A DNA stretch of 35,199 bases from NCBI GenBank assembly GCA_024278215.1, contig JAJRTR010000067.1, positions 1-35,199 of the forward strand, in the 5' to 3' direction. The stretch comes from a bacterium (GTDB taxonomy: Bacteria; UBP15; UBA6099; JAJRTR01). This document shows, in pieces, positions 10,789 to 34,196 of the stretch. The stretch's first letter is position 1. Every line of letters begins with the position of its first letter. The notes beneath the pieces were generated by a model, which saw only the letters and a list, made by a program, of their open reading frames with translations, was not told the DNA's origin and did no database searches. The position numbers were made by a program, and so were the translations under genes.

Positions 10789-12267
10789 GTGAAAAAGCTG
10801 ATACTGATAATCCTGTGCGTTATCGGGATGGGAACAGCGGCATACAGCAAGGAGATAGCAGGAGTAGTCAGGTGGGGCGCGCCCGAGCCGGGAGAAACTG
10901 AGGGGATCGGCTCGCTCAGCGCCGTTGCCGGTATAGATGTGTCTGTGACCACGACCGATGGAACCGCCCTTGCGACAGCGGTAACCGATGAAAACGGAGA
11001 ATATGTTTTGCAATTCGATTCGGGAGAATCCGCAGCATATACGGATTTTATTCTTGAAGCGGCGACGACCGGCGCCAGGCTTCGCGCAGTTGCCGACGGC
11101 CCGCATGTCGATATCGATCCTGTTTCGGAAGTGATTGTGGAACAGGTTATCAAATCCGGTAGCCCGACAAATAGTTTTACCGCCGATGAAATACGGTTGA
11201 TAAATAAAGAGCTTGCCACCCTCGCGGCGAACGTTGATTTTCAGGGCGTAGAAACACCTTCCGCCGCGGTAGCGTTGTTGCTGAACGACAAGAATTTTAG
11301 CCTCTCTCTTGGTGATCTCATCAACACATACAGTACTGAAGGAGATACAGTCGTCGAAGTTAATGATCTGAAGTCTATGATCACAAAATTCATCGCCGCA
11401 TTCACCAATAACGATCCTTCCGGTGTTGCTGATTACATAACCAACGATGTGCAGATCATTGTTGGCGACAAAGTATATGACTATAACGGTATTCAGAAGT
11501 TTATCGAAGAAATAAACCGAAAATTCGAGATGAATAAATTTGATGTTGAATGTGCTCGTGTCAGGGTGGACGGTGACAGCGCCGAAGTGGAGACTTCGGA
11601 GAAACTTTTATTGACGTCACGCGCCGGCGGCGAAGTTACAAGCGATTCATGGAATATGATAAATACGGTCAGGAGGATTGGCGGCAAGTGGCGTCTTGTA
11701 GACAGAAAAAGGAAGAAATGTGTTGTAGCAAAGCGGAGTATTACGCCGGACGGCGATATATCCGACTGGGTGGGTATCAGACCGTGTCTGATACAAAAGC
11801 CTGTTGTGAAAGGTGGTTCCGGAGTCTGGGGACGTATTGAATCGCTGTATTTCGCAAGAGATGAAATGTATCTGTACTGGAGAATGGACCTTCCGCGGAC
11901 GGCTGCCGCGTCAAACGGCGAAAAGACGTCACGTGGATTGTATTCGTTAACCCTGAAGAACGACACCGGTGATGAAGGTTGCGACCATTTTATAAACATG
12001 ATAGTTTACGAGGGCGTTCAGGGCGCTTCTCTGGGAGAGTCCTGCATCCGAGGGGCGGATAATACCAAAAAGGAAGCCACGTATACATACGAGAAATACG
12101 GTGTCGGAAAACTCACGGTGGAAGGGCGCGTTCCTCTGGATGACATCGGGTATCTGCCCAACGGAGTTATAGCTTTTGGAGCTTACAAGGGAAAAACACA
12201 TACCGGAGAGAAAGAAAAGCCAACGGTGTACACAGACGATACACAGATATTCTTTACCCCCGAATAG
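10789..12267 (+). CDS. Secreted NTF2-like domain protein, paralog of 7070..8587
   Basis: Signal peptide MKKLILIILC..AYS; shared LGDLxxTYSTEGDTV, WVGIRPC, SxYFA...YLxWRM and VEGxVPLD; GAAGGTG RBS-like site. Confidence 0.7.
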   Translation: MKKLILIILCVIGMGTAAYSKEIAGVVRWGAPEPGETEGIGSLSAVAGIDVSVTTTDGTALATAVTDENGEYVLQFDSGESAAYTDFILEAATTGARLRAVADGPHVDIDPVSEVIVEQVIKSGSPTNSFTADEIRLINKELATLAANVDFQGVETPSAAVALLLNDKNFSLSLGDLINTYSTEGDTVVEVNDLKSMITKFIAAFTNNDPSGVADYITNDVQIIVGDKVYDYNGIQKFIEEINRKFEMNKFDVECARVRVDGDSAEVETSEKLLLTSRAGGEVTSDSWNMINTVRRIGGKWRLVDRKRKKCVVAKRSITPDGDISDWVGIRPCLIQKPVVKGGSGVWGRIESLYFARDEMYLYWRMDLPRTAAASNGEKTSRGLYSLTLKNDTGDEGCDHFINMIVYEGVQGASLGESCIRGADNTKKEATYTYEKYGVGKLTVEGRVPLDDIGYLPNGVIAFGAYKGKTHTGEKEKPTVYTDDTQIFFTPE

Positions 12268-12273
12268 CAACTG

Positions 12274-13629
12274 ATGACAGTTCCGGAAGAAAAAGAATCG
12301 CGAATATACCTTGTCAATCCCCCATCAAAACGGCTTGTTCTGCGTGATTACTATTGCTGTACATTCTCGAAAACAGGCTATCTCTGGCAACCGGTTGATC
12401 TGCTTGTGCAGAGTGGTATTCTTTCCGAACAATACAGTGTCGGGATTATTGACGCGGTAGCGGAAAAGACCGGTGTGGCAACGGTGATAAGGACAATCCG
12501 CGACGCGAAACCTGAAGCGGTATATTCGCTCATCGGATCGAAAACGATTGAAACCGACCTGCAATTTCTGAAAACACTTAAGAGCAATACCGGCGCAACA
12601 ATTATTGTGTCCGGCGATGTCGTGCTCCATAAACCAGCAGTGTTTATTGAAAAACATGACTGTATTGATGCTGTGCTTCTTGATTTTACAACCAGAGATA
12701 TTGTCTACTATTTGCATTCCGTGTTCGACGAGATATCAGGTATGGTTTTTCGGACGGAAGATGGAATAATTTCAAAGATAAAATCATCTCGGCATGAATT
12801 CAAATATCCGTTTCCCTTGCATTCAGCTTTTCCTTCAGAAAAGTATAGTTTCCCGTTTGCGCAGCACGGTTATTCTGCGGTGCTCGCTTCGTTCGGCTGT
12901 CCCTTTTCCTGCGCGTTCTGCAATAGTGGTGTAAAGTCAATCGGGTTCAGTTTCCGAGACTTCGATAATCTGACCGATGAAATATCAGGATTGTACGAAA
13001 AAGGAGTCAGGCATATATTTTTCAAGGATATGACTTTCGGAACGAGTCGTTCCCGCCGCGAGAAGTTGTGCAGTTTTCTCAGCGCGGAAACACGGGGCCT
13101 GACATGGAACACTTATGCGAGAGTCGACCTGCTCGATGAAGAGACAATTAAGATGTATTCGGAGGCGGGCTGCCGGCTACTGCAAATGGGGATAGAGACA
13201 GCGGATGCGGACATGGCCGCGGGAGTCGGAAAGAAATTCGATATGGATCACGTCAGAAAAACATTCGCGTCGCTGAAAAGGAATAACATAGCGATCGGAG
13301 CGCACTATATCGTGGGGCTGCCGGGCGAAGTCGTGGCTGGGGCGATGAAAACACTAAGGCTGGCGCGGCGTCTCGATTCCGATTACGCATCATTTAATCT
13401 ATACTCGCCAAGACCGGGATCATCGCTCTATGATGTGGAGAAGACCCGGAAACGAAAACGGTTTGTATGGAAACAGGTATTCAGATTGATTTACATTATG
13501 TTTTATTTGCGGCCCGGATATATATTCGCTTCTCTGCGAAAAGGAAAGGCCGGGGGGGACGAAAGGAACATAAATATCCGCTCGATGATGAATATAATAA
13601 GTTATATTTTGTATCTGCCTGATGAATGA
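12274..13629 (+). CDS. B12-binding domain radical SAM protein
   Basis: N-terminal LVNPP...IIDAVAE Rossmann-like domain; SFGCPFSCAFC; GIET; IVGLPGE. Confidence 0.85.
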   Translation: MTVPEEKESRIYLVNPPSKRLVLRDYYCCTFSKTGYLWQPVDLLVQSGILSEQYSVGIIDAVAEKTGVATVIRTIRDAKPEAVYSLIGSKTIETDLQFLKTLKSNTGATIIVSGDVVLHKPAVFIEKHDCIDAVLLDFTTRDIVYYLHSVFDEISGMVFRTEDGIISKIKSSRHEFKYPFPLHSAFPSEKYSFPFAQHGYSAVLASFGCPFSCAFCNSGVKSIGFSFRDFDNLTDEISGLYEKGVRHIFFKDMTFGTSRSRREKLCSFLSAETRGLTWNTYARVDLLDEETIKMYSEAGCRLLQMGIETADADMAAGVGKKFDMDHVRKTFASLKRNNIAIGAHYIVGLPGEVVAGAMKTLRLARRLDSDYASFNLYSPRPGSSLYDVEKTRKRKRFVWKQVFRLIYIMFYLRPGYIFASLRKGKAGGDERNINIRSMMNIISYILYLPDE

Positions 13630-13691: not shown

Positions 13692-14945
13692 TCAGATATT
13701 CGCAAGTATATCATTGGTAAACCTGATTTGTGGTTCCACAGATTTGAAACCTTCAAGTACCTTGGCGGCCTCAGTATATAGAGACCTGACTGCTGATCCC
13801 GTATAGCGGTCGAGATTGCCCGCGCTGGGATAGGGAAGAGACAGGACGATTCCTTCGAAGTCTCTGTTTCCGCTGTATTTGTCGACAATTGACTGGATTG
13901 TGTCGCCGAGCGTGCCGATGCTTTCCGGGGTGAGTTTGATATTGACTCTTGATTTGTTTTCATCTTCGAGCAGGTTTTCGAGTCCCTGCAATGTTTGCGA
14001 CAGGCTGTTATCAGTACGTGTATGTGCATCGTGTATTTTCGGGTCCGAGGAAAAAAGTGACACTTCAAATATCAGACTGTCACTTTTGAGTTCGTTATGC
14101 CTTTTTCTGAATGAGGGATTACAGAATATCCGACCATTGGTGTTCACCTGCACGCGAATATCGGGTCTTATCGCCATCACCATTTTCATGACCTTGAGAT
14201 AGCTCTTGTGAAGAGTAGGTTCGCCGCCCTTGATGACCAGTGTTTTCAGTGCTTTTTGTCTTACCTTGCAATATATATATTTTGATAAAGGCATGAAATT
14301 GTGTTTTGAAACTCTTTCATCGAAGTCATAACCTTTCAGATCTGCCGGGATGTGGCATCCGACGCAGTTGTTGTTGCAGTTGCCGTTGATGAATAGATAT
14401 TCGGTAACGAACTTGACTTCCTTGTTGTAGTTTTCTCTTATTTCGGGCTTTTGTGCTTCCTGCCGCACTATTGCCGACAATATGTTGAGAGACCTGAAGT
14501 CAAGTGTGTGGAAGTTGTATTTGAAATAGTTCCTGATGTAATGATAGAGGTGAAAACGCATGTTGAGAAAAGTATCGTAACCGTCGGGGATGTAGGCCAT
14601 AAAAAAGGAAAGGTCTATCCAGTTGTCAATATTCGACGGGCTGTTATCGAGGAGTTCCCAGATCAATTTTATGCCTTTGTCAAACTCCTTTTCCACATAA
14701 TGACAATAGGCTTTGATCGCGACGTAAATGTCGGACCTGAAGTCGGACTTGTAAGACTCGATGAAATCTTTCAAGCGGCGATACTCTTCCGGTTCTCTAT
14801 ACGAGAGCAGTGATATGTGTGTGAAAAAGCTCATATCGTTAACGATATTGAACGAATAGTCGTTCAGATTGCGGTGGTAGGGCATGTCGAAGTTTTTGTT
14901 CAGAACTTCGTTCAGGATGTCGTCATAAGAGTTAATCATCGGCAA
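13692..14945 (-). CDS. Radical SAM protein (HxsC-like core) with N-terminal TPR-like helical domain
   Basis: NGNCNNNCVGC, KGGEPTLH, NTNGRIF, IHDAHT; N-terminal EFDKGIKLIWELLDNSPSNIDNWIDL; overlaps the stop of the upstream gene. Confidence 0.8.
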   Translation of the reverse strand: MPMINSYDDILNEVLNKNFDMPYHRNLNDYSFNIVNDMSFFTHISLLSYREPEEYRRLKDFIESYKSDFRSDIYVAIKAYCHYVEKEFDKGIKLIWELLDNSPSNIDNWIDLSFFMAYIPDGYDTFLNMRFHLYHYIRNYFKYNFHTLDFRSLNILSAIVRQEAQKPEIRENYNKEVKFVTEYLFINGNCNNNCVGCHIPADLKGYDFDERVSKHNFMPLSKYIYCKVRQKALKTLVIKGGEPTLHKSYLKVMKMVMAIRPDIRVQVNTNGRIFCNPSFRKRHNELKSDSLIFEVSLFSSDPKIHDAHTRTDNSLSQTLQGLENLLEDENKSRVNIKLTPESIGTLGDTIQSIVDKYSGNRDFEGIVLSLPYPSAGNLDRYTGSAVRSLYTEAAKVLEGFKSVEPQIRFTNDILANI

Positions 14946-15909
14946 AGGATATAAAAAACCATGGCTCCGTTTCAGTTTTTAGAATCATTTTTATCATTCG
15001 GTCGCCGGCATGCACGAAAATTCTGTCGTCGAGTATTTCAAGAGTATCGCCCTGCCTGAAGATGTCTTCGAGTATGCCGGGATAGAGATATTTGTCGACA
15101 AAACCACCGTTGTTGTATTTAAGTATGTTGCCCTCGGGCCTGCCGTCGAATGCGTAAATATCTCTTTCTCTGAAAACAAGGAAATTGAGTTTCAAGTGCC
15201 TGTCGATGATCTCGACATAAGTGGGATCATATTGTTGAATGAACGCTCTGAGTTTTGCGGAAAGTTCGGCGGTCGCCGTGCAATCGAAACTGCATGGGAT
15301 GTGGTATAAGTAGCAAAATGAATCTTTGACAAGCGAGTTGCAAAGGTAATTCGGTTTGGTTTTAGTATTTTCGAAAGGTTTCATCAGCGTGTTGCGATAT
15401 GCGTTGTGGTTGTTGAATTTCGCGAAGAAGTCGATGCAGCATTTCGGGTATCCGAGGTGTTCGCCGAACCAGTAATAGTCGATAATCGGTTTTGTGACTA
15501 TCCTGTTATTGACGCAGACAGGATACCAGCCGGTTCGTTTTATACGGTCGAGCGTTTCTCCGGATTTAGAAACGTAGAGATGAACCCGTCCGTAATAGCC
15601 TGCATCTACCGGTGCGCCCTGTGCGATAGTTGTAGTGAGCATTTCGCTGCCGATGGCGGACCTGACATCGTATGACCAGCCTTCGTCGTAAAAAACCGAT
15701 TCCGTTTCGACAACGAGAGAATACTTCTCGCAGGCGCTGATGAATTCGTCCAGCTTGTCCACATATATCCAGTCGTCGAGCGCGGGTTTAAGGTCCGCAA
15801 GCAGCGCATAGTAGAGGAATATCTGTCCGTGGCTGCCTCTTGCCCGGTAAATCTCGTTGAGATAGGTCGGGGAATAATCACCAAAATAAATGTCGCTGTC
15901 ATTAGGCAT
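14932..15909 (-). CDS. DUF483-like protein
   Basis: FGEHLGYPKCCIDFF and HIPCSFDC motifs. Confidence 0.65.
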   Translation of the reverse strand: MPNDSDIYFGDYSPTYLNEIYRARGSHGQIFLYYALLADLKPALDDWIYVDKLDEFISACEKYSLVVETESVFYDEGWSYDVRSAIGSEMLTTTIAQGAPVDAGYYGRVHLYVSKSGETLDRIKRTGWYPVCVNNRIVTKPIIDYYWFGEHLGYPKCCIDFFAKFNNHNAYRNTLMKPFENTKTKPNYLCNSLVKDSFCYLYHIPCSFDCTATAELSAKLRAFIQQYDPTYVEIIDRHLKLNFLVFRERDIYAFDGRPEGNILKYNNGGFVDKYLYPGILEDIFRQGDTLEILDDRIFVHAGDRMIKMILKTETEPWFFISFADD

Positions 15910-15975
15910 AAGTATATATTGTCCCGGTCGGATTATCGTTGAAACCTGTGATTTTCACAATACGCATGTCCGACT

Positions 15976-16884
15976 CTATTTTTTTGTCACGGGTTCAAAT
16001 TCGCTCCATCCGTAAGTCCTCGGATATTGCAGCCATGGCCCCTCGCAGATGTTGTAGTATAAACATTTCTTGCATTTTGGGGCTTTTTCCTTTTCAAAAT
16101 TTTTTCTGATGTATTCGAAATCGTTAACGACATTGGTAACGTCGTTAAGCTTGACGTGCGGGATATAGTTTTCCGACACATGCTTTTCATATCCCTGCAT
16201 GAAGCAGAACGGTACGGCTTCCACAAAGACCTGCACACCTGCTTTTCTTCCTATGTCGATGCCCTTTTTTATATAAGGTACGCAAAGCGATTTTTTCGGG
16301 AGCACGGAAAGTATGTTTTTGTCTGCGCTGCCGAGCACATGCACGAAAGCGTACTGAAACACATCGACTCCAAGCCGCACGAGAAGAGTGGCGAGGTCGG
16401 GGAATGTCCTGAAATTTGTTTTTGTAACGACAGTGTTTATCGAAACCGACTGTTTTCTCTTTGTGAGGTTGTATATTCCTTTTACTGTCTGTCTGTAGCT
16501 GTTGGCGCCGGTCAGGTAATTGTGGCAATATTCGTTAGCGGAGAGCAGTGCCGCGGTAACGGTTTGTATGCGGCCTTTACCAGCGGCGAGGAATTCGTCG
16601 CAGAACTTGCTGTAAGCGAATCGCCGGGCATTGGTCTGGATAAGTATGTTGTATCCGAGTCCGGCAGCATATTCGAGAATTTCCATGCAGTCGTTTCTGA
16701 CAGTGAATTCACCACCGGTCAGCACGACTTCCTGGTAGTCGTCTTTTTCCGCATAGAGGACATCCTTTATCTGCTGCGTTGTGCGGTCGGGAATAAAAAA
16801 TCTTTTGTCGCCGATAACACAATGTTTGCAGTAGTTGTTGCATCTATAACCAACTTTCAGGTCAAGTCTGTTCGGCATTGCCAT
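15976..16884 (-). CDS. Radical SAM protein with C-terminal auxiliary-cluster motif (HxsC-like)
   Basis: VGYRCNNYCKHC, LTGGEFT, IQTNAR, VPFCF, CKKCLYYNICEG; GGAG RBS. Confidence 0.88.
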   Translation of the reverse strand: MAMPNRLDLKVGYRCNNYCKHCVIGDKRFFIPDRTTQQIKDVLYAEKDDYQEVVLTGGEFTVRNDCMEILEYAAGLGYNILIQTNARRFAYSKFCDEFLAAGKGRIQTVTAALLSANEYCHNYLTGANSYRQTVKGIYNLTKRKQSVSINTVVTKTNFRTFPDLATLLVRLGVDVFQYAFVHVLGSADKNILSVLPKKSLCVPYIKKGIDIGRKAGVQVFVEAVPFCFMQGYEKHVSENYIPHVKLNDVTNVVNDFEYIRKNFEKEKAPKCKKCLYYNICEGPWLQYPRTYGWSEFEPVTKK

Positions 16885-16927
16885 AAAATCACATCTCCGA
16901 CATTCCTATAAGGGCGGCGTTTCTATG

Positions 16928-17893
16928 TTACGATGCGCCTGCTAAGATTTTTTCTGAAACTTCTTCTTTCGTTGTGTAAAACACAGGATACAATTCTCTG
17001 GATGTGTAGTGTTCGTCCATGGAATACAAACCTGCACATATTTCGTTCAGGTAGCACACTTTGCAGCAATCGGTTTTCCCGTAAAACCTGTCACCGTCTC
17101 TTTTGTCTACTTCACCTTTTTCGTCCAGGAAAAGTATCCTGCATTTGTCGTTTTTAACGATCCTTCTGGTCTCGGTCGATAAGTGCTCGAAACCGCTCAT
17201 GTAACACAGGGGAACGCGTTCGACGCGGCAGGACATTCCCCATTCTTCGATCAAATTTACCGATCTGTCGAGTTGTATGTCGAAATCATTCAGCATGGGG
17301 ATTGTATCGGTGTTCTGCGAGGCGCGGTTCATCAGCGGGTCGAGGTTATTGAAGGTTATATGTTTTACAAAAGAGAATTTCTTTTTTATGTGGCCGACGA
17401 TACGGCTCAGGTGGTCGGAATTGTACTTGTTGATCGTTATCGCTATATCGAGCTTGATGCCGCCGATTTTTTTTATATTGCGCGCGGCCTGCTCGAAATT
17501 CTTGAGCGAATCCTGATTGCCGGTGAGAAAGCTCTGGACACCGGCATCGTCGGAGTAGACGGACATTGTTACAAGTTTCAGGCCGGAATCCTTAAGTTTT
17601 TTCAGATAGGCCATGTCTGCCAGTTTCTGGCCGTTTGTGATAATGCGACAGCCGAATTTCCTTGAAGCGCAATATTCGATATATTCCGGCAGATCATCGG
17701 ACAGGGTCGGTTCGCCGCCTGTGAGCAGAACGCCGAGGTAATCGCCGTCGGCAATTGTCGAGTCGATAAACTTTTTGCCCTGGGACAATGTTATGGAATT
17801 CTGATTCTCCGGATTTGAACAGAATCTGCATTGCTGGTTACATAAACGTGTGATCTGAAGATATGAAAAACTTGCCATAATATTATTTTTCAA
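16928..17893 (-). CDS. Radical SAM protein with C-terminal auxiliary-cluster motif (HxsC-like)
   Basis: ITRLCNQQCRFC, LTGGEPTL, ITNG, VPLCY, CKVCYLNEICAG. Alternative ATG at 17878. Confidence 0.88.
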   Translation of the reverse strand: MKNNIMASFSYLQITRLCNQQCRFCSNPENQNSITLSQGKKFIDSTIADGDYLGVLLTGGEPTLSDDLPEYIEYCASRKFGCRIITNGQKLADMAYLKKLKDSGLKLVTMSVYSDDAGVQSFLTGNQDSLKNFEQAARNIKKIGGIKLDIAITINKYNSDHLSRIVGHIKKKFSFVKHITFNNLDPLMNRASQNTDTIPMLNDFDIQLDRSVNLIEEWGMSCRVERVPLCYMSGFEHLSTETRRIVKNDKCRILFLDEKGEVDKRDGDRFYGKTDCCKVCYLNEICAGLYSMDEHYTSRELYPVFYTTKEEVSEKILAGAS

Positions 17894-18014
17894 CCTGATA
17901 TATCTGATCTTATCGGGTTGAACCCGTTGTTATTTTTGAAACAGTAAATTATAGTTGCATTCTCCCTGTTTTCCATCGATGGAAATGATATTGCCGAACC
18001 AGGTGGAAAAGATG

Positions 18015-18839
18015 TTACCACGATGAATGCGAGCCGTGCGAACCGTGGCTGTTCGCGCTGCTGTGCGAGTTGGCGGCAGCAATGCTGGCGTGAGTATTCG
18101 CAGAGCCGGTGTTGGCGTGTGTGCTAAGGTTCGTGTGCCTGTTTATTGCGTTAGTGCTGGCGTGTGTCGCATAGTTCCTGTGATTATTTATAGCATTGGC
18201 ATTGCCGTGAGTATTGACATTGGTGCTGGCATGGGTGGCGCTTACATTGTTGTGAACACTTGTGCCCGCCGTGTTGACGTGATTGCCGGTAGTCGCGCTT
18301 CCGTGTGCTGTCCATGCGGAGTGTTTGCCTTGCGAGGCGCTGTTGTGCATATTGCCTTTTGTGACCCCGCCGCTCGAGTGTACGGCGGCCGCATTGATCG
18401 CCGGTTTGCTGGAGTGCTTATTTATAGCAGATGTGGCGATATTTTTATTGTAGCTGTTATGGGCGTTTACGGCTGCGGTGCTTGTGTGCGCGCCTGAGCT
18501 TGAGTGCACACTGTTTGCGACCTGGCTGGCGTGCGTGTTTGCGTTGGAATGCTGGGCAATAGCGGCGACACTCGTGTGCCCCGACTGGGCGGCCCTGTTT
18601 GTGTGGGCATTATAACTGACGTGCATACTTTCGTGTGCCGACCTTGCGACCTGCGGGTCGATAAGAATTCCCAGCGCGACGAAAACCATGGCACCGGTCA
18701 CAACATTTTTCGATGTGATCTTCGCCTCTTCTTTTGTGAAATAGCACAGTGCATCTTCAACTATTCCCGGCAGTTTCCTTTTTGGGGACTGTAATCCCGC
18801 CGTGCCGGTCTGCGCTGTTCCTTTCATTCTCTTTTTCAT
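18015..18839 (-). CDS. His-Xaa-Ser/Asn repeat precursor protein 3 (HxsA-like)
   Basis: 27 His, 26 of them H-x-S/N; ends SHGSHGSHSSW; conserved leader. ATG 18839 has an AAGGTGG SD (ORF track starts at GTG 18848). Confidence 0.88.
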   Translation of the reverse strand: MKKRMKGTAQTGTAGLQSPKRKLPGIVEDALCYFTKEEAKITSKNVVTGAMVFVALGILIDPQVARSAHESMHVSYNAHTNRAAQSGHTSVAAIAQHSNANTHASQVANSVHSSSGAHTSTAAVNAHNSYNKNIATSAINKHSSKPAINAAAVHSSGGVTKGNMHNSASQGKHSAWTAHGSATTGNHVNTAGTSVHNNVSATHASTNVNTHGNANAINNHRNYATHASTNAINRHTNLSTHANTGSANTHASIAAANSHSSANSHGSHGSHSSW

Positions 18840-18865
18840 CTCGCCCACCTTTTAATAAATTTACC

Positions 18866-18998
18866 TGCCGGGACTGTCCTGACCCGGCAAAGCCGGAATC
18901 CAACAGGCCGCATTTTCGTGCCCAAACAAATGCGGTTTGAGCACGGCACACAGAGTTTCATCGTTTCCAAGGTCTACCTCGGAAACGCCTGTAACTGG
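18866..18998 (-). promoter_or_regulatory. Structured intergenic leader, candidate cis-regulatory RNA
   Basis: Hairpins at 18962-18987, 18917-18945 and 18866-18889, two of them with competing alternative pairings. Confidence 0.35.
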
Positions 18999-19094
18999 CA
19001 GCTCCAGCTTTCACCGATCTCTTTTCAGCATTTCTTTACCATCCTGCGTAGAATTTCAGTCGTAAGATACTATACGTCAATTATTATCAATATG

Positions 19095-19928
19095 TTACCA
19101 TGAAGCGTGAGAAGCATGTGAGAAATGCTTGTTAGAACTTACATGATTGTTGATCGCTGTGATATTCGAGTGTGTGTTAACGGCGGCTCTGTTCCCATGT
19201 GAATTGGAGTTGGCATGGGAGTTTATGGCGCCGGTATTGGAATGTCTGTTCACACTGGCATGGTCTGCGGCGGCGACGGTGCTCGCATGGGCGGAAGATG
19301 AAGCGTGATCGGATACGGCGGGGATACTGGTATGTGTGTTTGTACCCGCGGCATTCACATGTGATGTGAGGCTCGAATTGTCGTGAGCAGTCCACGCGGT
19401 GTGTTTGCCCTGCGAGGCGCTGTTGTGCATGTTGCCTTTTGTCAGGCTGTTGTTCGAGTGAACAGCCGCGGCGCTTGTGTGTCCCGAACTGGAGTGTACG
19501 GACCTTACCGGATAGCTTGTAGCGTTGTTGAGGCTTGAATGGTTGTTCAGGGCGGCGGAACTGGTGTGGTCGCTGGCACTGACGTGAGAGTTGATCGCGT
19601 TCGAACTGCGGTGGCTGGTGTCACTAAGATGTTTGTTCACGGCTATCACGCTCGAATGAGTGCTTCTTGCTGCCTGGCTTCCGTGGCTGACGATGTTGGA
19701 ATGGATGTTTGTATGCCAGCCTGCGGCCGGGTCGCTCGCCAGTCCGATGTCCACCACCGCAAGCGTTCCTGTAAGGATGCTCTTCGAGCTGATTTTGGCT
19801 TCTTCATTCTTGAAGTAACCAAGCACATCTTCTTTGATGGAGGGAAGCAATTTACCAGCGCCGGGCTTGAGTTTGCTGTCAGGCGAAATGTTGCCATCCC
19901 TGCCTGTCTTTTTCCTTTTATCCGCCAT
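19095..19928 (-). CDS. His-Xaa-Ser/Asn repeat precursor protein 2 (HxsA-like)
   Basis: 28 His, 27 of them H-x-S/N; ends HFSHASHASW; GGAGG RBS. Confidence 0.9.
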   Translation of the reverse strand: MADKRKKTGRDGNISPDSKLKPGAGKLLPSIKEDVLGYFKNEEAKISSKSILTGTLAVVDIGLASDPAAGWHTNIHSNIVSHGSQAARSTHSSVIAVNKHLSDTSHRSSNAINSHVSASDHTSSAALNNHSSLNNATSYPVRSVHSSSGHTSAAAVHSNNSLTKGNMHNSASQGKHTAWTAHDNSSLTSHVNAAGTNTHTSIPAVSDHASSSAHASTVAAADHASVNRHSNTGAINSHANSNSHGNRAAVNTHSNITAINNHVSSNKHFSHASHASW

Positions 19929-20071
19929 TTCTATCGCCTCCGGACATCAACTTGTGTTTTGCGTTCTTTAATGGAGCCAATTGGCTCAATGATCCGTTCA
20001 ATTCAGGTTACACATCTTGCTTTGTTGCTTTTAAATCTTTGTTGTTTTAAAATCACTGTATTCCCTTATCA

Positions 20072-20893
20072 TTACCATGAAGCGTGCGAGCTGTGTGAAG
20101 AATGCGCATTGGAATTCGAATGAGCGTTCACAGCAGTGATGCTCGAGTGGGCACTGACACCGGTTCCGCTTGTATGACTGTTAAGGCTGTAGTGGTTATT
20201 GATCGCATTCCTGCTGGCATGTCTGCTCGAATTCGAGTGTGCCGCCGCGGCTGAAGCGTTCGAGTGTGTGCTGTAGTTTGTGTGTGCATTTGTAGGCGAC
20301 ATGCTTGTGTGCCTGCTGGATGCGGCCCTGCTGGCATGTGTTGTGGGGGCTGTGTTGCTGTGGTCCGTCCAGGCGGAGTGCGTGCCCTGTGAGGCGCTGT
20401 TGTGCATGTTGCCTTTTGTGAGTGCGCTGTTGGAGTGTGTGTCGACAACGGTGTTTGTGGCTGCCGTACTTGCATGGCTGTTGGAGTTCATGTTCGAATG
20501 ATTGTTGATGCTGTTATGTACATTCACACTGCCTTTGCTGGAATGATCGCTGACAACATTGCTGTGTCTGGACGATGCTGCCATGCTGCCGTGCGAACTT
20601 ATGTTTGTGTGCCTGTTGACGGCGGAAACATTGGAGTGCGAACTGGACCCCGCCTGGTTGATATGCTGAACAACACTGGAATGAGCGCTGGTGTGAATAG
20701 ACGACGCGGGGTCGGAGAGCAGACCGATGGCGGCAATCGCCAGTGTGCCGGTGAGAATGTTTTTGGGCGATATCTTTGCTTCTTCATTGGTGAAATATTC
20801 GAGCACGTCATCCTTCACCGAGGGCAGTATCGTTTTGACACCCTGTTTGACTGAAGCGCTACCGTATACTTCGTTGCGTTTTTTTTCGCTCAT
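20072..20893 (-). CDS. His-Xaa-Ser/Asn repeat precursor protein 1 (HxsA-like)
   Basis: 28 His, 27 of them H-x-S/N; ends HSSHSSHASW; AAGGTG RBS; directly downstream of hxsB. Confidence 0.9.
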   Translation of the reverse strand: MSEKKRNEVYGSASVKQGVKTILPSVKDDVLEYFTNEEAKISPKNILTGTLAIAAIGLLSDPASSIHTSAHSSVVQHINQAGSSSHSNVSAVNRHTNISSHGSMAASSRHSNVVSDHSSKGSVNVHNSINNHSNMNSNSHASTAATNTVVDTHSNSALTKGNMHNSASQGTHSAWTDHSNTAPTTHASRAASSRHTSMSPTNAHTNYSTHSNASAAAAHSNSSRHASRNAINNHYSLNSHTSGTGVSAHSSITAVNAHSNSNAHSSHSSHASW

Positions 20894-20990
20894 GACACAC
20901 CTTTTTTTACTTTTCCCTTTGCTGCATCAAAGGTCTTTTAAGTTAACAACATAACGGTCGTGTTGTCTTGCCGACATCAGTTATCCGTGC

Positions 20991-22535
20991 TTAATTGCTT
21001 TTCTCGCATTCGCATTCTTTTTCTTCCGGAACATTGTCTCGTTCACTCCCGTTATCCGGGATCACTGCATTGTCGTCCTGCACTCTTTTGCCGACATAGT
21101 CTTCGATCCACTTAAGGAATACGGCACTGTTTTCCGGGATGAGGAGTCGCTCGAACAGGATATCCATAATACCTTCGTTTATTTTGTGCCTTCTTGTAGT
21201 GAAAACATTTGGGGACAACTCACCGCTCTCGTGATAATTCTGCACGGGACATATACCGCAATAAGGTTTATAGACGCACATCGAGCAACCGGGTGTCGAT
21301 TCTATAGTCGAAGCAAGGCATACGGCTTTAGTCGCCTTGTGCATGATCAGGTCGGTGTATGTGGACTCGCCGCAAGTGCCTATCTTGAATGTATCGTCGC
21401 CAAGGTGCCCGAGCATTCGGGCTTCGTCACATGTATACACGTCTCCGTTGTAGTTGTATGCAAGCTGTCCGAGTGCCGCGCCGCACGGAGACTTTAAATC
21501 CACATAACCAGGTTCGTGGCCTGCGATAGCCTTGCTGAGTATGTATATCGCAAATGTCTCCGTGAAGTATGTGCCGCCGTGGTTGATCTCCAGCACATAA
21601 TCAATTATCTCTGCATAAAATTCGAGAAATTCATCTGTGGTTATTCCTATTTTCTCCCAGTTTTTCTGAGCTACGCCCAGCGTGGTGGGGGGCCGCACGA
21701 ATATGGAATTCGACCCAAGCGAACGATATTCGTCTACAATCTCCCTTGCATAAGGCAGTGAATGTTTTGTAACGGTTCCTATCAGCGCCGGGAGTCTCTC
21801 GAGTCCTTCGTTCACATAGCGGTCAAACACTTTTCTGTAGTTTTTAACTACAAGCGCATGATTATCGCCGCGGTTTTTGTTGTGTACGTAGTCCGGTCCG
21901 TCGAGCGACATGCACATCACAACTTCGTTCTCGACAAGGAAATCAAGTTTCTCGTCATCTATCAGGGTGTGGTTTGATACTATGTTGAAACTTATCGACC
22001 TGTTTTTTACTTTATTAACTTCTTTCGCGTATTTGATTATGTGTTTGACAACTTCCCAGTTGAGCAGCGGTTCGCCGCCCTGGAACTCTATGCTGAGAAC
22101 TTCCGAAGGCGCCTGGAAGATCGTGTCCACCACCTTCTCGGCGGTTTCTATCGACATGTCTGTGCCGTGTGTGCTGCCCGGCACAGAATTCGCCTGGCAG
22201 TAAAGACATTTCAGATTGCATCTCAGCGTGGCGATTATGATATGCAGATTGGTAATGTGGGCGGGGTCCCTGAATCGTTTCAGCGCCTTATCCACCACAC
22301 CCGCTCTTGTTTCCTTCGTGAAGATCATATTGTGTTTCTGGAAATCTTCCATCAGCCGGCGATTACCGTAGGGGAGCCCGTTTTCGACAAGGTCTTTGAA
22401 ATCCGGCTCTTCGAGAAATAAGTAATTGCCGTATTCATTAACTATCAGAACATAGCCGCCTATTTTCCTGAAGCTGAAAGGCACCATTTTCTCAAAGTGC
22501 TTTTGTTTAACTTTTTTAATTGCGATGCCGTTCAT
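20991..22535 (-). CDS. hxsB: His-Xaa-Ser system radical SAM/SPASM maturase HxsB
   Basis: LHIIIATLRCNLKCLYCQA, IEFQGGEPLLN, SLDGP, YVDLKSPCGAALGQLAYNYNGDVYTCDEARML, PGCSMCVYKPYCGICPV. Confidence 0.9.
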   Translation of the reverse strand: MNGIAIKKVKQKHFEKMVPFSFRKIGGYVLIVNEYGNYLFLEEPDFKDLVENGLPYGNRRLMEDFQKHNMIFTKETRAGVVDKALKRFRDPAHITNLHIIIATLRCNLKCLYCQANSVPGSTHGTDMSIETAEKVVDTIFQAPSEVLSIEFQGGEPLLNWEVVKHIIKYAKEVNKVKNRSISFNIVSNHTLIDDEKLDFLVENEVVMCMSLDGPDYVHNKNRGDNHALVVKNYRKVFDRYVNEGLERLPALIGTVTKHSLPYAREIVDEYRSLGSNSIFVRPPTTLGVAQKNWEKIGITTDEFLEFYAEIIDYVLEINHGGTYFTETFAIYILSKAIAGHEPGYVDLKSPCGAALGQLAYNYNGDVYTCDEARMLGHLGDDTFKIGTCGESTYTDLIMHKATKAVCLASTIESTPGCSMCVYKPYCGICPVQNYHESGELSPNVFTTRRHKINEGIMDILFERLLIPENSAVFLKWIEDYVGKRVQDDNAVIPDNGSERDNVPEEKECECEKSN

Positions 22536-22738
22536 TACTTTCCGCCCATCTTGTATATCACGTAATTGCAGAATTCATCTATGAAATTTTCATGATCGGA
22601 ATAATCAATATTTTCGACGCTTACGTCAATTTTTCGCCCGGTGTCCGAAATAGTGAAATCAGCGAAACCGCCGTAATCTTTTACTGCTTCTTTTACAGCG
22701 CTCAATTTGTAAATCCTTTTGTCAAAATCAACTTTCAA
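22535..22738 (-). CDS. Short HxsD-like protein
   Basis: FDKRIYKLSAVKEAVKDY...FIDEFCNYV matches the HxsD pattern; overlaps both neighbours (TAATG coupling to hxsB). Confidence 0.75.
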   Translation of the reverse strand: MKVDFDKRIYKLSAVKEAVKDYGGFADFTISDTGRKIDVSVENIDYSDHENFIDEFCNYVIYKMGGK

Positions 22739-23300
22739 CGACTTCTCCGTTCAATGTCGGTATCACCAGCCCCTTTTTCGCCTGATCCTCGATTTGTTGC
22801 CGGGGGTCAAGTATATTGTCGGGCTGTCCGTATTTTTCTTCCCAGGGCGTCGCGATGCCGAGCGGATCGTCTTCGTAGTCGAACGATTCTTCCTCTTCCT
22901 CGATATCGGCAAGAAGTTTTTCCATTTTGTCGTTGAGTTTGAATACCTCCGCCCTGCTCTCCGTGTCCAGTTCCGTCTGCAAGTTGTCCGAAGCTAGGGA
23001 TATGCGTTCCGGGTTGAACACGATGTGAAATATCTGGTCCCTGACTCTTGATGTGCCTTTTAATATCTTCAATTTCACCGAGTAGTCCAACGCTTCATCC
23101 CGGAACTCACTTTCCAGATTGTCTATGGTTTCTCCGTCTTTTGGTTTAAGCTGCACAATAATTTTTCTGGCGTCGCTTTCGTCGTAATCAACACGCACAT
23201 AGCATTTCGCCAGGAATTTGTGGCATGCGCCCAATATGGCTTCCGCTGGAAACAACTTCGTGCTGAAGTGCATTTCCACACCGTTACCGCCGTTCTTCAT
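22728..23300 (-). CDS. hxsD: His-Xaa-Ser system protein HxsD with acidic C-terminal extension
   Basis: FSTKLFPAEAILGACHKF...EFRDEALDYSVKLKILKGTSRVRDQI; tail EEEEESFDYEDDPLGIATPWEEKYG; GGGAGG RBS. Confidence 0.75.
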   Translation of the reverse strand: MKNGGNGVEMHFSTKLFPAEAILGACHKFLAKCYVRVDYDESDARKIIVQLKPKDGETIDNLESEFRDEALDYSVKLKILKGTSRVRDQIFHIVFNPERISLASDNLQTELDTESRAEVFKLNDKMEKLLADIEEEEESFDYEDDPLGIATPWEEKYGQPDNILDPRQQIEDQAKKGLVIPTLNGEVVES

Positions 23301-23589
23301 TTTTTGCCGGCCCTCCCAGGATTCCTCAACACTTTATCAAAGCCTGTTGAAGCGATCATTCTGAAAAATAAATATTTCCATCTCCGAGCGATGTGATTAT
23401 ATATATAAATGGTTATATAACTCTTCGATCTATTATAGTACAGAACATGAAAATTCACAATCTTTCACTGAAGCTTATCGGTTATTCATGCTTTCCATGT
23501 GAAAACAAGCCGCATATTTATTCGAAATCACATTATTGTTATAGTATATCATGTATTGCAGAATATCAGATAGCGGGAAAAGTTCTGAA
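23301..23589. promoter_or_regulatory. AT-rich divergent promoter region between the hxs operon and a B12-rSAM
   Basis: Non-coding, AT-rich, with short palindromes TTATATATATAA and GTTATATAAC; exact promoters not resolved. Confidence 0.45.
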
Positions 23590-24888
23590 ATGAAGAAAAC
23601 TCATATCGTCTGCCTGCTTGGGCTGTCGAAACTTGACATTTATCATAAGGATACCTATTGCTACGGACTCGATAGAATCGCGGCGCATTCGCTCAAAAAA
23701 GGCCTGAATGCAAGAATACACAAATTAAACAGATATGTGGCAGGAGACATAACAGATGATTTGAAGCAGGTGGTTGAAATATATCCCGACGTACTGGCCT
23801 TATCGGCGTATTTGTGGAATGTGGAAAGAGTCGATTACCTTATATCCAGGACCAGGGAACTGCTCACGGAAACGCTGGTGGTGGTCGGCGGTCCGAGCGC
23901 GGGAAGGTACAGGCAGTTTGCTCCGGAATCGAAAAGCCCCCACTACGTAATTATCGGCGAGGGCGAAAAAGTATTCTTCGATCTTGTTGATTCATACCTG
24001 AACGGCAGGAAAAGATGTTATATCGCGCCGATATTAGAAAAAGAGGAGCTTGTATCATGCCGGGAACCTGTGATTATTGAAGATGCGCCGCCTGTCGCGA
24101 ATCTGGACGAACTGGGGTCGCCGTATACGATGAACCTTGGAATGCCGCCCGGTGACCGCCTGTATATCGAGACAAGCAGGGGATGTCCCCACAGGTGCTC
24201 TTTCTGCATTATGGGAATGTGCCGGGCGCCCCTTAGATTTTTCAGTATGGATTTTCTCAGGGAAGAATTACTCTGGGCAAAAAGCAACGGGAAAACCGAT
24301 GTCGATATTTGCGATGCGGCAATCAATTATAATTCGGAACATGCGGCGGGCTTTTTCAGAACGGCGGAAAGTATTGATCCTGAAGGTCAACTGAGTTTCA
24401 CTTTCGCAGTTCATGCGGATTATATAACGCCGGATCAGATCAGTGAGATGTCGCGTGTGAATGTTTTGCAGGCATCGGTAGGACTGAATTCATTAACACC
24501 CGGGACATTCAAGACAGTTGGGCGCAGAGTGGACAGAGTAAAGTTTGCAAGAAAAATCGATATGCTGAATACGGTCACAAGGCCCTCTGTTTCAGTTATA
24601 ATGGGGCTTCCGGGCGATACTGTGGAAGGATTTCGTGAGACGCTGGAATTCTGTGCGGAGTTGGATGCCGATATAAATATTTTTGAGCTCAAGGTTTTTC
24701 ACGATACCGGCTACTACAGGGATATCGAGAGATATAAGATTGTGTTTGATGAGGGCAACAGCATGAATGTTGTGTCGACGTTCAGCTACACGGAATCCGA
24801 TCTTGAAGAGATGCGGGCGGCGGCGGCGGAGTACGCCAGGAGGTTCGACAGGTTCAGTGCAGGCGATGTCGAACAAGTATGGAAATGA
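23590..24888 (+). CDS. B12-binding domain radical SAM protein
   Basis: PDVLALSAYLWN, VVVGGP, IIGEGE, ETSRGCPHRCSFC, IMGLPGDT. ATG 23590 preferred to 23551. Confidence 0.88.
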   Translation: MKKTHIVCLLGLSKLDIYHKDTYCYGLDRIAAHSLKKGLNARIHKLNRYVAGDITDDLKQVVEIYPDVLALSAYLWNVERVDYLISRTRELLTETLVVVGGPSAGRYRQFAPESKSPHYVIIGEGEKVFFDLVDSYLNGRKRCYIAPILEKEELVSCREPVIIEDAPPVANLDELGSPYTMNLGMPPGDRLYIETSRGCPHRCSFCIMGMCRAPLRFFSMDFLREELLWAKSNGKTDVDICDAAINYNSEHAAGFFRTAESIDPEGQLSFTFAVHADYITPDQISEMSRVNVLQASVGLNSLTPGTFKTVGRRVDRVKFARKIDMLNTVTRPSVSVIMGLPGDTVEGFRETLEFCAELDADINIFELKVFHDTGYYRDIERYKIVFDEGNSMNVVSTFSYTESDLEEMRAAAAEYARRFDRFSAGDVEQVWK

Positions 24889-25840: not shown

Positions 25841-26096
25841 GTTCCGCGTTCCCTTCGTGTGTGTGCCGCCGACCCGGCGGCACGATATCCTTATCTGCGT
25901 TTGTTAATATCTCGTTGAATATTATCCATACACAAGTTTGTTGTCAATTCGTTGATTCCGGCTTGAAAAGTTCCGGGATGTTTTTATCATCGCTATAAAT
26001 TGCTAATGGCCGCAATATCAATTTCATGTGTCACTCTTAATCCGGCTCAGCGTCTCCTTGACTTATCGACAGGCGCAAACGCACCCACGCTGTTTG

Positions 26097-27584
26097 TCAT
26101 GCGTCGAGCCCGAAGAATTTTTTGAGGTAGTGTTTGTAGCGCGCGGCGTACTGGAGCATCATGATCTCGGCGTCGGGCGACTTGCGCATCAGGAGCCGCG
26201 CGGCGGTGTATGCTATGCCGGGGATGACGGATGTCGGGAAACGTCGATACCAGCGCCGCCGGATGATTTTGTCTATCCAGCGCTTCGGCAGTATCATGAT
26301 AAGCACGAACAGCAGGTAGAACTGTCGCTGGAGCAGCGGCGACGCGCTGTCGATGGTGATCGAGCCGAGGTCGTCGCCCGAGTTGATACGGGCTACATCC
26401 TCAGCGGTCAGCACGCCGTGGTCCATTGCGATTTGAATTATTTCGGTGCTCGGAAAGTATCGCAGCCAGAACACTTTCAATATGTCGGGCCGGACTTCGT
26501 TGTAGAACTCGGCCATCTCGAGCAGGTCGTCCTCGTTTTCTGTCGGAAAGTTGGTAATGTTTTCGGCGGCGACGAATATATTCCTGCTTTTGAGAATCTC
26601 AATCGAGCGCCTTATCCTGTCGGTCGTTTCACGGCGGTTGTAAATGTTGCGGCGTTTTTCCTGGTTGATCGTCTGCACGCCGATGTCCACCTTGCCACAG
26701 CCCGACTCCGCCAGAAGGTCGGCGTATTCCTCGGTGACTATGTTGGGATTCGTGCAGGCGATATAGGGCAGTCCGACCCGCCGGTTGTATTTTTCGACGA
26801 ATTCTTCCAGCCATTTTTTGTTGAATCCGAATACTTCGTCATAGAAATTGATGTGCGGCTCGCCGTACTTCTTTTTAGCAGCCGCGAGTTCTTCGATGAC
26901 GTTGTCCACGCTTCGCAGCCGGACATAGCCTTTGAGCCCGTAGATTCTTTTCAAGAGGTTATTATTGCAGAAAGTGCATTTGTAGGGACAGCCGCGCGAT
27001 GCCATGATGGTGTAGATGTCGGTGGGTTTCATGGGCGTCTTTTCGTAAAGCGTTTTGTCGGGGAAGGGGAGTGTGTCCAGGTCCGCGATCAGCGGTCTGA
27101 TGGGGTTTAATCGAGCGTTGCCGTTTTCGAGCGTGCCGAGATTTTCTATCGCCGGGTCTATTCCGCCGGTGCTCATGACCGAGTCGATGATGTCCGCGAA
27201 AGCGCCTTCGCCCTCGCCGCGCACGACTGCGTCCACACAGTCGAGTTCGAGAATGTTTTCGGGTACGGAAGTGATGTGAATGTTGCCCGCAATTATCGGG
27301 GCGTCCGTGTGCGGGCGGATCATGGCGGCTAACTCGCGGAACCACGGCACATCGCTTGTCACTACCGAGAAAGCGAGCAGGTCGGGTTTTTCGGCGAGGA
27401 CTTCCCTGACGACTTTTTTTCTCATGTTGAAGAGCCGCGCGAGCGGGCCGACGGTCACAAACGAATCGTCGAACAATCTCGGGTCGAACACCATCGATAC
27501 TTCGCAGCCCTTTGCTTTCGCCACAGCCGAAAGGTACTCGATTGCGAGGCTGCTGAACGCCGGGTATACAAATACTATTTTCAT
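26097..27584 (-). CDS. B12-binding domain radical SAM protein
   Basis: MKIVFVYP start, PDLLAFS, VVRGEGE, DLDTLPFPD, ASRGCPYKCTFC, RSVDNVIEE. Confidence 0.9.
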   Translation of the reverse strand: MKIVFVYPAFSSLAIEYLSAVAKAKGCEVSMVFDPRLFDDSFVTVGPLARLFNMRKKVVREVLAEKPDLLAFSVVTSDVPWFRELAAMIRPHTDAPIIAGNIHITSVPENILELDCVDAVVRGEGEGAFADIIDSVMSTGGIDPAIENLGTLENGNARLNPIRPLIADLDTLPFPDKTLYEKTPMKPTDIYTIMASRGCPYKCTFCNNNLLKRIYGLKGYVRLRSVDNVIEELAAAKKKYGEPHINFYDEVFGFNKKWLEEFVEKYNRRVGLPYIACTNPNIVTEEYADLLAESGCGKVDIGVQTINQEKRRNIYNRRETTDRIRRSIEILKSRNIFVAAENITNFPTENEDDLLEMAEFYNEVRPDILKVFWLRYFPSTEIIQIAMDHGVLTAEDVARINSGDDLGSITIDSASPLLQRQFYLLFVLIMILPKRWIDKIIRRRWYRRFPTSVIPGIAYTAARLLMRKSPDAEIMMLQYAARYKHYLKKFFGLDA

Positions 27585-27729
27585 AGGTCTGTTTTTATCC
27601 GAATTCCTGCATTTGTGTTTCGACAAGCCTGTAAAGCGGTTTGCCGTTGCCGCACTGCCAACCACAGTGGTGAAATATGCTGATAATATATCGAATCCAT
27701 ATCATATTACAGGTCGAGTCTTTGTCGTT

Positions 27730-29043: not shown

Positions 29044-29069
29044 GACAAAACCACCATGAAAGCAGAATT

Positions 29070-29096
29070 ACCCGCATTGGTGAAATAAGCGGGATA
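29070..29096 (-). repeat. Dispersed repeat copy 2 (short form)
   Basis: Minus strand TATCCCGCTTATTTCACCAATGCGGGT versus TATCCCGCATATTTCACCA at 24907. Confidence 0.6.
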
Positions 29097-33572: not shown

Positions 33573-34196
33573 TCAACCGTCCTGTTCGGCCCGCGGAGGC
33601 AGACCAAGTATTTCCGGCTTTACTTTTTTTATGAAGCTGATTGCGCCGACCGCTATCAGCCCTTCGACAATCATAATAGGCAAATGGGCCACGACGATAA
33701 GTCGCGCTGTCTGGACAAACGATTCCTCGGTGAAGACTAGTTCAGCCGCCACCAGCAACCCGCTGAGCATCACAGGCAACGCGCCGCACAGAAACGCGCC
33801 CGTCACCGAGACCGCATTGTTTCCGCTGAAAATCATCCTGCTGAACAAGAACCGGCACATCACCGCCGGAAATGCCATGTTGAACGTGTTCACTCCCAGC
33901 ACGGTGATACCGCCGAACTGGAATAAAACAGCCTGCATGAACAGCGCGACAAGCATTGACGGAAAAGCCGCCCAACCGAGCAGAAGCCCGTTTAATCCGT
34001 TGAGAATAAGGTGCGCGCTCGACGGGCCGATAGGCACATGAATGAAAGAAGCGACAAAAAACGCCGACGACAGCAACGCCACTTTCGGTATGTCTTCCTG
34101 CTTCGTTTTCTTGAGTCCTATCGCTACGCCCACTACGGCCAGCGCCGCGCCGCCGATCAGTATCGGTGGCGAAAGGACTCCTTCCGAGATGTGCAT
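33573..34196 (-). CDS. cbiM: CbiM/NikM substrate-binding S component of a Ni/Co ECF transporter
   Basis: MHISEG N-terminus, FFVASFIHVPIGPSSAHLILNGL, LFQFGGITVLGVN. Confidence 0.92.
   Translation of the reverse strand: MHISEGVLSPPILIGGAALAVVGVAIGLKKTKQEDIPKVALLSSAFFVASFIHVPIGPSSAHLILNGLNGLLLGWAAFPSMLVALFMQAVLFQFGGITVLGVNTFNMAFPAVMCRFLFSRMIFSGNNAVSVTGAFLCGALPVMLSGLLVAAELVFTEESFVQTARLIVVAHLPIMIVEGLIAVGAISFIKKVKPEILGLPPRAEQDG

Follow-up and report, generated by a model that had tools for sequence, protein, structure and literature searches.

The one experimentally studied His-Xaa-Ser (HXS) system, that of Escherichia coli, is described as an anti-phage system that blocks DNA entry (PMC13128918, Nat Commun 2026). 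Its effector HxsA is a periplasmic protein with five HxS repeats that is processed at its N-terminus, and HxsB, HxsC and HxsD are each required for N-terminal cleavage of HxsA, for a modification within an HxS repeat and for its periplasmic accumulation. The modification reported there is a gain of 8 Da, of the +C/-4H type, on one SHRSS motif; HxsC binds HxsD, and in-vitro reconstitution was unsuccessful. A survey based on HxsA placed 99.7% of the systems in Pseudomonadota and found more than 99.8% of them to have four genes (PMC13128918). Here we describe a ten-gene cluster of His-Xaa-Ser type at positions 13692-23300 (minus strand) of contig JAJRTR010000067.1, assembly GCA_024278215.1, from an uncultivated bacterium of the UBP15 lineage; the whole stretch analysed, 35,199 nucleotides, is called the window. 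The cluster, which encodes three giant HxsA-like proteins, is a rare, conserved and uncharacterised enlargement of the known Hxs system.

With the canonical hxsD-hxsB-hxsC-hxsA loci of E. coli and Klebsiella, the cluster shares an HxsB equivalog, a small protein of the HxsD family, an HxsC-like second radical S-adenosylmethionine (SAM) enzyme, and a protein with HxS-site repeats behind an N-terminal export or processing region; in both, the substrate is a protein and not a short peptide. It differs in scale, with three putative substrates of about 27 sites each, whereas the canonical substrate has five sites and is alone. Its sites lie 9 and 6 residues apart and accept Asn, the giants have no peptidoglycan-binding domain, and their repeats are not basic. 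Moreover, the canonical operon has the four genes D-B-C-A, whereas the ten genes here include three HxsC-like enzymes that score below the HxsC cut-off, an extra HxsD_rel and a DUF483-like protein.

Loci of the HxsA4/HxsD_rel/HxsC4 type (NF038313, NF038315, NF038332) have in common with the cluster the order HxsD, HxsD_rel, HxsB, a substrate with a leader and a hydrophobic segment, a C-terminal HxSHxS...W/Y, and several HxsC-like radical-SAM enzymes, two of which, in a second locus of the same genome, are 44-48% identical to those of the window. However, such loci encode a single substrate, some 75-190 aa long, in which the sites follow one another without a break, in contrast to the three 273-277-aa paralogues found here, with their dispersed sites and middle motif. 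Gene families and comparison with related loci thus indicate that the cluster enlarges the HxsA4/HxsD_rel-type variant and not the canonical four-gene system.

A full-text search of the literature turned up one study of the system, as a preprint and as PMC13128918, and no description of giant or multiple HxsA proteins, although the supplements of PMC13128918 may list rare architectures; in the literature found, the giant-substrate architecture is so far undescribed. The initial annotation had held that no product of such a cluster was known to have been characterised. No paper on the giant architecture came to light, whereas the canonical E. coli system has by now been characterised (PMC13128918).

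The three giant repeat proteins

The giants are encoded one after the other on the minus strand, at 20072-20893 (protein 1, 273 aa), 19095-19928 (protein 2, 277 aa) and 18015-18848 (protein 3, 277 aa), and carry 27, 27 and 26 Hx[S/N] sites, respectively. Nearly every histidine belongs to such a site: 27/28, 27/28 and 26/27 have Ser or Asn at position +2. The total, 80 out of 83, reproduces the number of sites first annotated, and the exceptions, one per protein, all fall on one shared site, GKH[S/T]AW. When each core was shuffled 2000 times, the mean number of Hx[S/N] was 8.7-11.0 and the maximum 16-19. Each core is about 206 aa long and has a mass of about 21 kDa, in keeping with the product of some 20 kDa, rather than a small peptide, that was initially envisaged.

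Histidines are spaced chiefly by 9 and 6 residues, frequently in alternation. The three cores can be divided into about 52 short units, 29 of nine residues and 23 of six, each opening with Hx[S/N]; the consensus is H-x-[S/N]-x-A-A-[V/I]-[N/S]-x for the nine-residue unit and H-x-[S/N]-x-[N/S]-x for the six-residue one. Tandem Repeats Finder detected no corresponding tandem repeat in the DNA, which argues that the histidine pattern is kept at the protein level and is not due to recent slippage. A low-complexity or slippage artefact was ruled out by this absence, together with the conservation of the sites across proteins that are 42-48% identical.

The N-terminal part of each giant consists of a variable basic stretch, a conserved leader, LPxxxxDxxxYFxxEEAK, and a 17-residue hydrophobic segment with a mean hydropathy of 1.3-2.1. 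A non-repeat motif, TKGxxHN..GKHxAW, is conserved in the middle of the chain, and the C-terminal end is HxSHxSHxSW in each protein. Leader, hydrophobic segment and ending are common to the giants and to the short HxsA3/A4 proteins. Against the HxsA3 model NF038309 (cut-off 65), protein 1 scored 17.5 bits at its N-terminus and protein 3 scored 20.9 bits; protein 2 had no NCBIfam or Pfam match at E≤0.01, and at the same threshold no giant matched the HxsA4 model NF038313 (cut-off 55). An AlphaFold2 (AF2) model built from a 21-sequence alignment had a mean predicted local distance difference test (pLDDT) score of 39, with helices only at the leader (residues 26-37) and at the hydrophobic segment (43-59). 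The unmodified core is thus predicted to be disordered.

Conservation was measured on an alignment of the 15 closest sequences, whose identity to protein 1 is 40-48%. It reaches 97% in the 28 His columns, compared with 38% in the remaining 180 columns of the core. At least 12 of the 15 sequences retain the His in 26 columns, and 22 of these columns have both Ser and Asn at +2. At the final two sites the +2 residue is always Ser, and at one site it is always Ala. Judged by this conservation, selection acts on the His sites.

The giants belong to a rare family. Of 1707 candidates that a word index drew from 5.8 billion proteins, 2 clusters reached E≤0.001; with a full HMMER profile run against 1.84 billion representatives, 30 had E≤0.001, of which 10 had E≤1e-10 and 5 had E≤1e-30. 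Length is held at 268-281 aa among the relatives; certain proteins further removed, 210-262 aa long, also have the leader and the middle motif, and end in HGSHGSHGQW. Giants were then sought in 61 genomes, namely the genome of the window, 12 more from the same order and 48 from other parts of the domain. Five of them have full-length copies, and always in threes: three each in G000 (the window's own genome), G003, G009 and G012, and six in G007. Four other genomes of the order gave short HxsA-like matches only. A fifth His-rich open reading frame (ORF) from the genome-wide scan, on contig C45 (212 aa, 8/11 His), was discarded, as it appeared by eye to be a Pro/Ser/Arg-rich off-frame ORF.

In a maximum-likelihood tree of 18 giant proteins and 3 outgroups, the giants of position 3 formed one clade (support 100/99). 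Those of positions 1 and 2 formed one group each, which the window's own copies joined weakly (58/64 and 68/83). In four loci, that of the window and L018, L019 and L020, the triple is preceded by HxsB and followed by the HxsC-like genes. Two further triples, L071 (G007, contig C6, 7788-10340) and L072 (G009, contig C13, 10926-13522), had no Hxs enzyme in the flanks that were fetched; they adjoin proteins with Chlorovirus glycoprotein repeats, DUF11 and copper amine oxidase N-terminal domains, as well as MurJ. Since copies always come in threes and triples exist apart from the enzymes, it can be argued that the three giants work as a set.

Radical-SAM enzymes, other cluster proteins and related loci

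All ten ORFs first annotated as co-oriented were found again, close-packed on the minus strand over 13692-23300, in the order D, D_rel, B, A, A, A, C-like, C-like, DUF483-like, C-like. Three junctions overlap: HxsD-like/HxsD_rel by 11 nt, HxsD_rel/HxsB by 1 nt (base 22535), and DUF483-like/last radical-SAM gene by 14 nt. Scans for promoters (15 found, 14.6 expected) and for terminators (12 found, 12.7 expected) were at chance level. Families were assigned from NCBIfam and Pfam profile scores, read against the curated cut-offs.

Two proteins pass these cut-offs and support the original assignment to a His-Xaa-Ser-type radical-SAM cluster. HxsB, a radical-SAM/SPASM-type maturase of 514 aa (20991-22535), scored 470.8 bits against TIGR03978 (cut-off 370), over positions 2-466 of the 466 of the profile. 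HxsD_rel, a small protein of 67 aa with a C-terminal DEFCNYV motif (22535-22738), scored 66.5 bits against NF038315 (cut-off 41), and its residues E55, F56 and N58 are invariant in a 24-row alignment. A complex prediction combining this alignment with the leader region (residues 18-66) gave no answer (score 0.00). Upstream of HxsD_rel lies an HxsD-like protein of 190 aa with an acidic C-terminal extension (22728-23300).

Downstream of the giants are the three further radical-SAM enzymes, for each of which HxsC or HxsC4 is the best or near-best NCBIfam match. They are a 321-aa HxsC-like enzyme (16928-17893), a 302-aa HxsC4-like enzyme (15976-16884), which reached 99.9 bits against NF038332 and not its cut-off of 500, and a 417-aa enzyme with an N-terminal extension of about 175 aa (13692-14945). 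All four cluster enzymes have a Radical_SAM domain (Pfam) and a CxxxCxxC motif: CNLKCLYC at residue 106 in HxsB, CNQQCRFC at residue 18 in the 321-aa enzyme, CNNYCKHC at residue 15 in the 302-aa enzyme and CNNNCVGC at residue 190 in the 417-aa enzyme. HxsB also bears CSMCVYKPYCGIC at residue 417, a C-terminal cluster of the form CxxCx5CxxC, and the 321- and 302-aa enzymes end in CxxCx5C (CKVCYLNEIC and CKKCLYYNIC). The 417-aa enzyme has no Cys beyond residue 275 and hence no C-terminal Cys cluster, and its TIGR03977 match covers residues 169-358. The TPR label first given to this enzyme found no confirmation, since residues 1-175 matched no Pfam family at E≤1 and the protein-atlas scores of this part to some TPR-bearing clusters, 0.83-0.84, stay under the 0.9 level. 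When PADLOC was run on eight cluster proteins and the two flanking B12-binding radical-SAM proteins, the pVip matches of the four cluster enzymes were to the generic radical-SAM core only, and were rejected as evidence of defence.

Radical-SAM/SPASM enzymes that act on whole proteins have a precedent in QhpD, which matures the gamma subunit of quinohemoprotein amine dehydrogenase by several intramolecular cross-links, the protein working outside the cytoplasm. The QhpD links are Cys-based thioethers in a small enzyme subunit with no His-x-Ser motif. HxsB scored 90.2 bits against the QhpD-type family, whose cut-off is 453.

The remaining gene (14932-15909) encodes a Cys/His-rich protein of 325 aa. 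It was initially annotated as DUF483-like; its PF04467 match, over residues 146-220, scores 24.2 bits and so narrowly misses the cut-off of 25. Nineteen of its 30 protein-atlas matches are in DUF483-bearing clusters, with a top score of 0.93, and C157, C158, C190, H203, C206 and C210 are invariant in 13 sequences. Its AF2 model (pLDDT 77, predicted TM-score (pTM) 0.79) had no match in the PDB at E≤0.001 with Foldseek. Leads from a wide VIA-align search (2guk_B, Z 7.6, rmsd 3.5, 110 aligned residues; NleE, 4r29_A, Z 5.1) were set aside as falling in a range common by chance.

A sister family within the order has both the ten-gene arrangement and the set of three paralogues. L018 and L020 have the same gene order throughout, and L019 has it until the contig edge after the 302-type gene. 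The full order in the relatives is SnoaL-like secreted protein, HxsD, HxsD_rel, HxsB, three giants, 321-type, 302-type, DUF483-like, 417-type and a fifth radical-SAM enzyme. In L018, L019 and L020 the HxsD-like orthologues are 51-53% identical and in the same position, and identity is 61-63% for HxsB, 60% for the 321-type and 77% for the 302-type enzyme; in L018 and L020, the DUF483-like orthologues are 65-66% and the 417-type enzyme 39% identical.

These three were the only loci with a giant triple among 53 related ones fetched via HxsB. Most of the other 50, which come from groups of the candidate phyla radiation (CPR), Omnitrophota, Elusimicrobia and a few metagenome-assembled genomes (MAGs) labelled archaeal, encode a single short substrate, about 75-190 aa long, whose HxS units form an uninterrupted run (up to 43 units, in L048); in five, no short HxS substrate ORF appeared under the ORF-scan filter used. 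HxsD_rel homologues adjoin HxsB in 31 of the 53 (tblastn), and a DUF483-like gene is present in 2 (L018 and L020), with one weak match in L033. The short HxsA-type proteins of three Saccharibacteria-labelled MAGs (L048, 12076-12639; L045, 11445-11900; L069, 11553-12014) have 31-43 contiguous HxS units, with Ser at +2 of every histidine. HxsB relatives 32-39% identical are present in L053, L056, L062 and L068, from MAGs labelled Methanosarcinales, archaeon and Woesearchaeota, and in L053 and L056 a short HxS-repeat ORF adjoins HxsB.

The genome of the window itself has a second Hxs locus, of ordinary size, on contig C205 (2190-7893; also L009). It encodes HxsD, HxsD_rel (57.8 bits), HxsB (499.5 bits), an HxsA4 of 101 aa ending in (HGS)n-W (NF038313, 69.6 bits for a cut-off of 55), and three HxsC-like radical-SAM enzymes; the HxsC4 scores there, 161.5 and 149 bits, are also short of the cut-off of 500. 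The 321-aa enzyme of the window is 48% identical to L009:5880-6848, and the 302-aa enzyme 44% identical to L009:4901-5872. This locus is flanked upstream by a gene for a 704-aa repeat protein, and downstream by genes for large membrane proteins.

Possible products and roles

The cluster is probably a lineage-specific enlargement of an HxsA4/HxsD_rel-type maturation system, in which leader-guided giants are modified at many sites, exported, and act together. The three paralogues would be the substrates, and their leader LPxxxxDxxxYFxxEEAK would be recognised by a maturation machinery made of HxsB, the three HxsC-like enzymes, HxsD and HxsD_rel as adaptors, and possibly also the DUF483-like protein. 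While the chains are in the cytoplasm, the radical-SAM enzymes would act repeatedly at the 26-27 His-x-Ser/Asn sites of each chain. By analogy with E. coli, the modified chains would then be exported and lose their N-terminal part, the hydrophobic segment directing export, and the three products would act jointly in the cell envelope. A BamA-like gene in the genome (208 bits) suggests that this envelope includes an outer membrane. An archaeal origin, raised by the DUF483 and Agl23-like matches, was set aside in favour of a bacterial one partly on account of this gene; the genome yielded neither an SSU rRNA nor an MCR gene, which is uninformative on this point.

As for the chemistry, the Ser/Asn interchange at +2 makes C-beta its most likely place, rather than the Ser hydroxyl. 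The reaction would use the C-beta hydrogen of the +2 residue and the imidazole, to give either a His-to-C-beta link or a modification of the +C/-4H type. The radical-SAM enzymes HaaB, HtkB and YhhB are reported to join His-C2 to the C-beta of the third residue in HAA, HTK and HNR motifs (PMC11499958), which bears out the three-residue cyclophane precedent invoked in the initial annotation. In these histidine triceptides, too, His opens the motif and the residue that reacts is the third, and triceptide-like chemistry at C-beta of position 3 would explain why Ser and Asn are interchangeable. Unlike the giants, with about 27 sites each, the triceptide precursors known so far are short and contain few motifs. 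In addition, the sole Hxs mass change reported is +8 Da and not the -2 Da of a cyclophane, and no structure is known for an Hxs product.

Several observations weigh against the reading we favour. Against TIGR03977 (HxsC, cut-off 267.9), the 321-, 302- and 417-aa enzymes scored 88.4, 89.7 and 83.5 bits, all far short. Two HxsD had been annotated at first; the second is the HxsD_rel, above its cut-off, whereas the first scored 36.8 bits against TIGR03976 (cut-off 50; residues 13-96 on positions 2-85 of 90). No giant passes a curated HxsA model; of the Hxs family searches initially proposed, that for HxsB succeeds and those for HxsD, the HxsC-like enzymes and the giants fall below the cut-offs. 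The giants match no Pfam family and do not have the peptidoglycan-binding domain seen in the E. coli effector, and with 8-9 Lys and Arg per core their repeats are not basic-rich. The signal-like segment, from which export is read by hydropathy alone, is preceded by an N-terminal region that, at about 45 residues, is unusually long. One genome, G009, has a triple and no HxsB above the cut-off, its assembly being 67% complete. HxsB also lies outside the curated cyclophane synthase families (YhhB, 55.1 bits for a cut-off of 445; GrrM/OscB, 52.2 for 310; AmcB, 58.9 for 425), and the one measured Hxs modification affects one site and does not amount to many cross-links. The heavily cross-linked product originally envisaged thus stays conjectural, and any activity of the cluster product is a prediction from the genes.

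An extended form of the same reading, which we regard as unlikely, is that each chain acquires about 26 His-to-Ser/Asn links, so that a 21-kDa polypeptide that was disordered becomes a rigid scaffold resembling a ladder, and that the three chains assemble outside the cytoplasm into a hetero-oligomeric envelope material, possibly metal-coordinating or phage-blocking. If true, radical-SAM modification per chain would be far above the precedents, and the product would be a new kind of bacterial surface component.

The same machinery could instead serve an anti-phage role as in E. coli, with His-rich periplasmic chains hindering phage DNA entry, a possibility that we find somewhat unlikely. It is consistent with the E. 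coli precedent, the sole Hxs system studied by experiment being a defence system with an exported, radical-SAM-matured HxS-repeat effector (PMC13128918). Moreover, the 27-28 histidines per chain could provide a pH-dependent positive charge, and a divergent B12-binding radical-SAM gene next to the cluster (23551-24888, plus strand) matches the PADLOC candidate PDC-M51A (107.1 bits, profile positions 56-411 of 420), with a 38% identical copy near the cluster in L020. However, HxsB is above its cut-off in 10 of the 13 genomes of the order (the three others are 67-83% complete), several of which carry two copies, so that it resembles a trait of the whole lineage more than a defence gene of patchy occurrence. 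Furthermore, the giants are without a peptidoglycan-binding domain, no recognised defence gene is present within the window, and the neighbours are surface or envelope proteins. Given the near lineage-wide HxsB and such neighbours, phage defence is no likelier than a constitutive role in the envelope, and the near-universal, multi-copy presence of Hxs in one lineage questions defence as its only role.

In another scheme, the giants are multi-core precursors, cut after modification into many small macrocyclic peptides that contain His, which would be a small-molecule product of the class of ribosomally made, post-translationally modified peptides (RiPPs). The division of the cores into some 52 short units, their predicted disorder, and the invariant Cys and His of the DUF483-like protein, which could be a peptidase, would all fit. 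However, no cleavage motif is conserved between units, whose sequences vary widely beyond the His, the +2 Ser/Asn and a few A/V/N positions, and both the conserved middle motif and the constant length of 268-281 aa point to a whole-chain product. NCBIfam and Pfam reveal no protease or transporter family in the cluster, and the fold search with the DUF483-like protein yielded no peptidase. We consider this scheme improbable, and the RiPP-like natural product of the initial annotation is no better supported than a matured envelope protein.

Finally, it is very improbable that the giants are unmodified metal-binding or low-complexity envelope proteins placed beside Hxs enzymes incidentally: His-rich proteins can bind Ni, Co or Zn unmodified, two triples have no Hxs enzyme in the fetched flanks, and a CbiM cobalt-uptake gene is present at 33573-34196 (minus strand), but metal binding alone would not demand Ser or Asn exactly at +2 of nearly every His (80/83), the N-terminus is an HxsA-type leader as in the short HxsA3/A4 proteins that are always beside HxsB, and in four loci the triple is flanked by HxsB on one side and by HxsC-like genes on the other.

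Neighbourhood and significance

Elsewhere in the window, two plus-strand genes (10789-12267 and 7070-8587) are paralogues whose products, each about 500 aa long, look secreted and contain a DUF4440/SnoaL-like domain. Directly upstream of HxsD in L018, L019 and L020 there is a homologue with 26-28% identity, and by this placement the SnoaL-like protein may belong to the system. There are eight radical-SAM genes in these 35 kb: the four cluster enzymes, the B12-binding one at 23551-24888, and three more at 12274-13629 (plus strand), 26097-27665 and 27730-28977 (both minus strand). The product of 26097-27665 has a Pfam B12-binding domain, that of 12274-13629 resembles B12-binding radical-SAM families by NCBIfam only, and that of 27730-28977 has an HMPTM-type zinc ribbon. 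Two long ORFs on the opposite strand, 26028-27110 and 27280-29088, match no family and are probably spurious. An 875-aa protein with three NlpC/P60 stretches (203 bits) is encoded at 29507-32134 (plus strand), and a fatty-acid hydroxylase at 189-1151 (minus strand).

Hxs-type systems extend well beyond Pseudomonadota. For solving Hxs chemistry the giants are promising substrates, as about 27 selected sites per chain would amplify a mass or nuclear magnetic resonance (NMR) signal many-fold, and the proteins should bind to nickel resin through their own histidines. Their conservation also suggests which residues the enzymes need: an invariant His, a +2 residue that may be Ser or Asn, and Ser at the last two sites. 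If whole proteins are indeed stapled at dozens of sites, radical-SAM peptide chemistry would extend to protein-scale materials.

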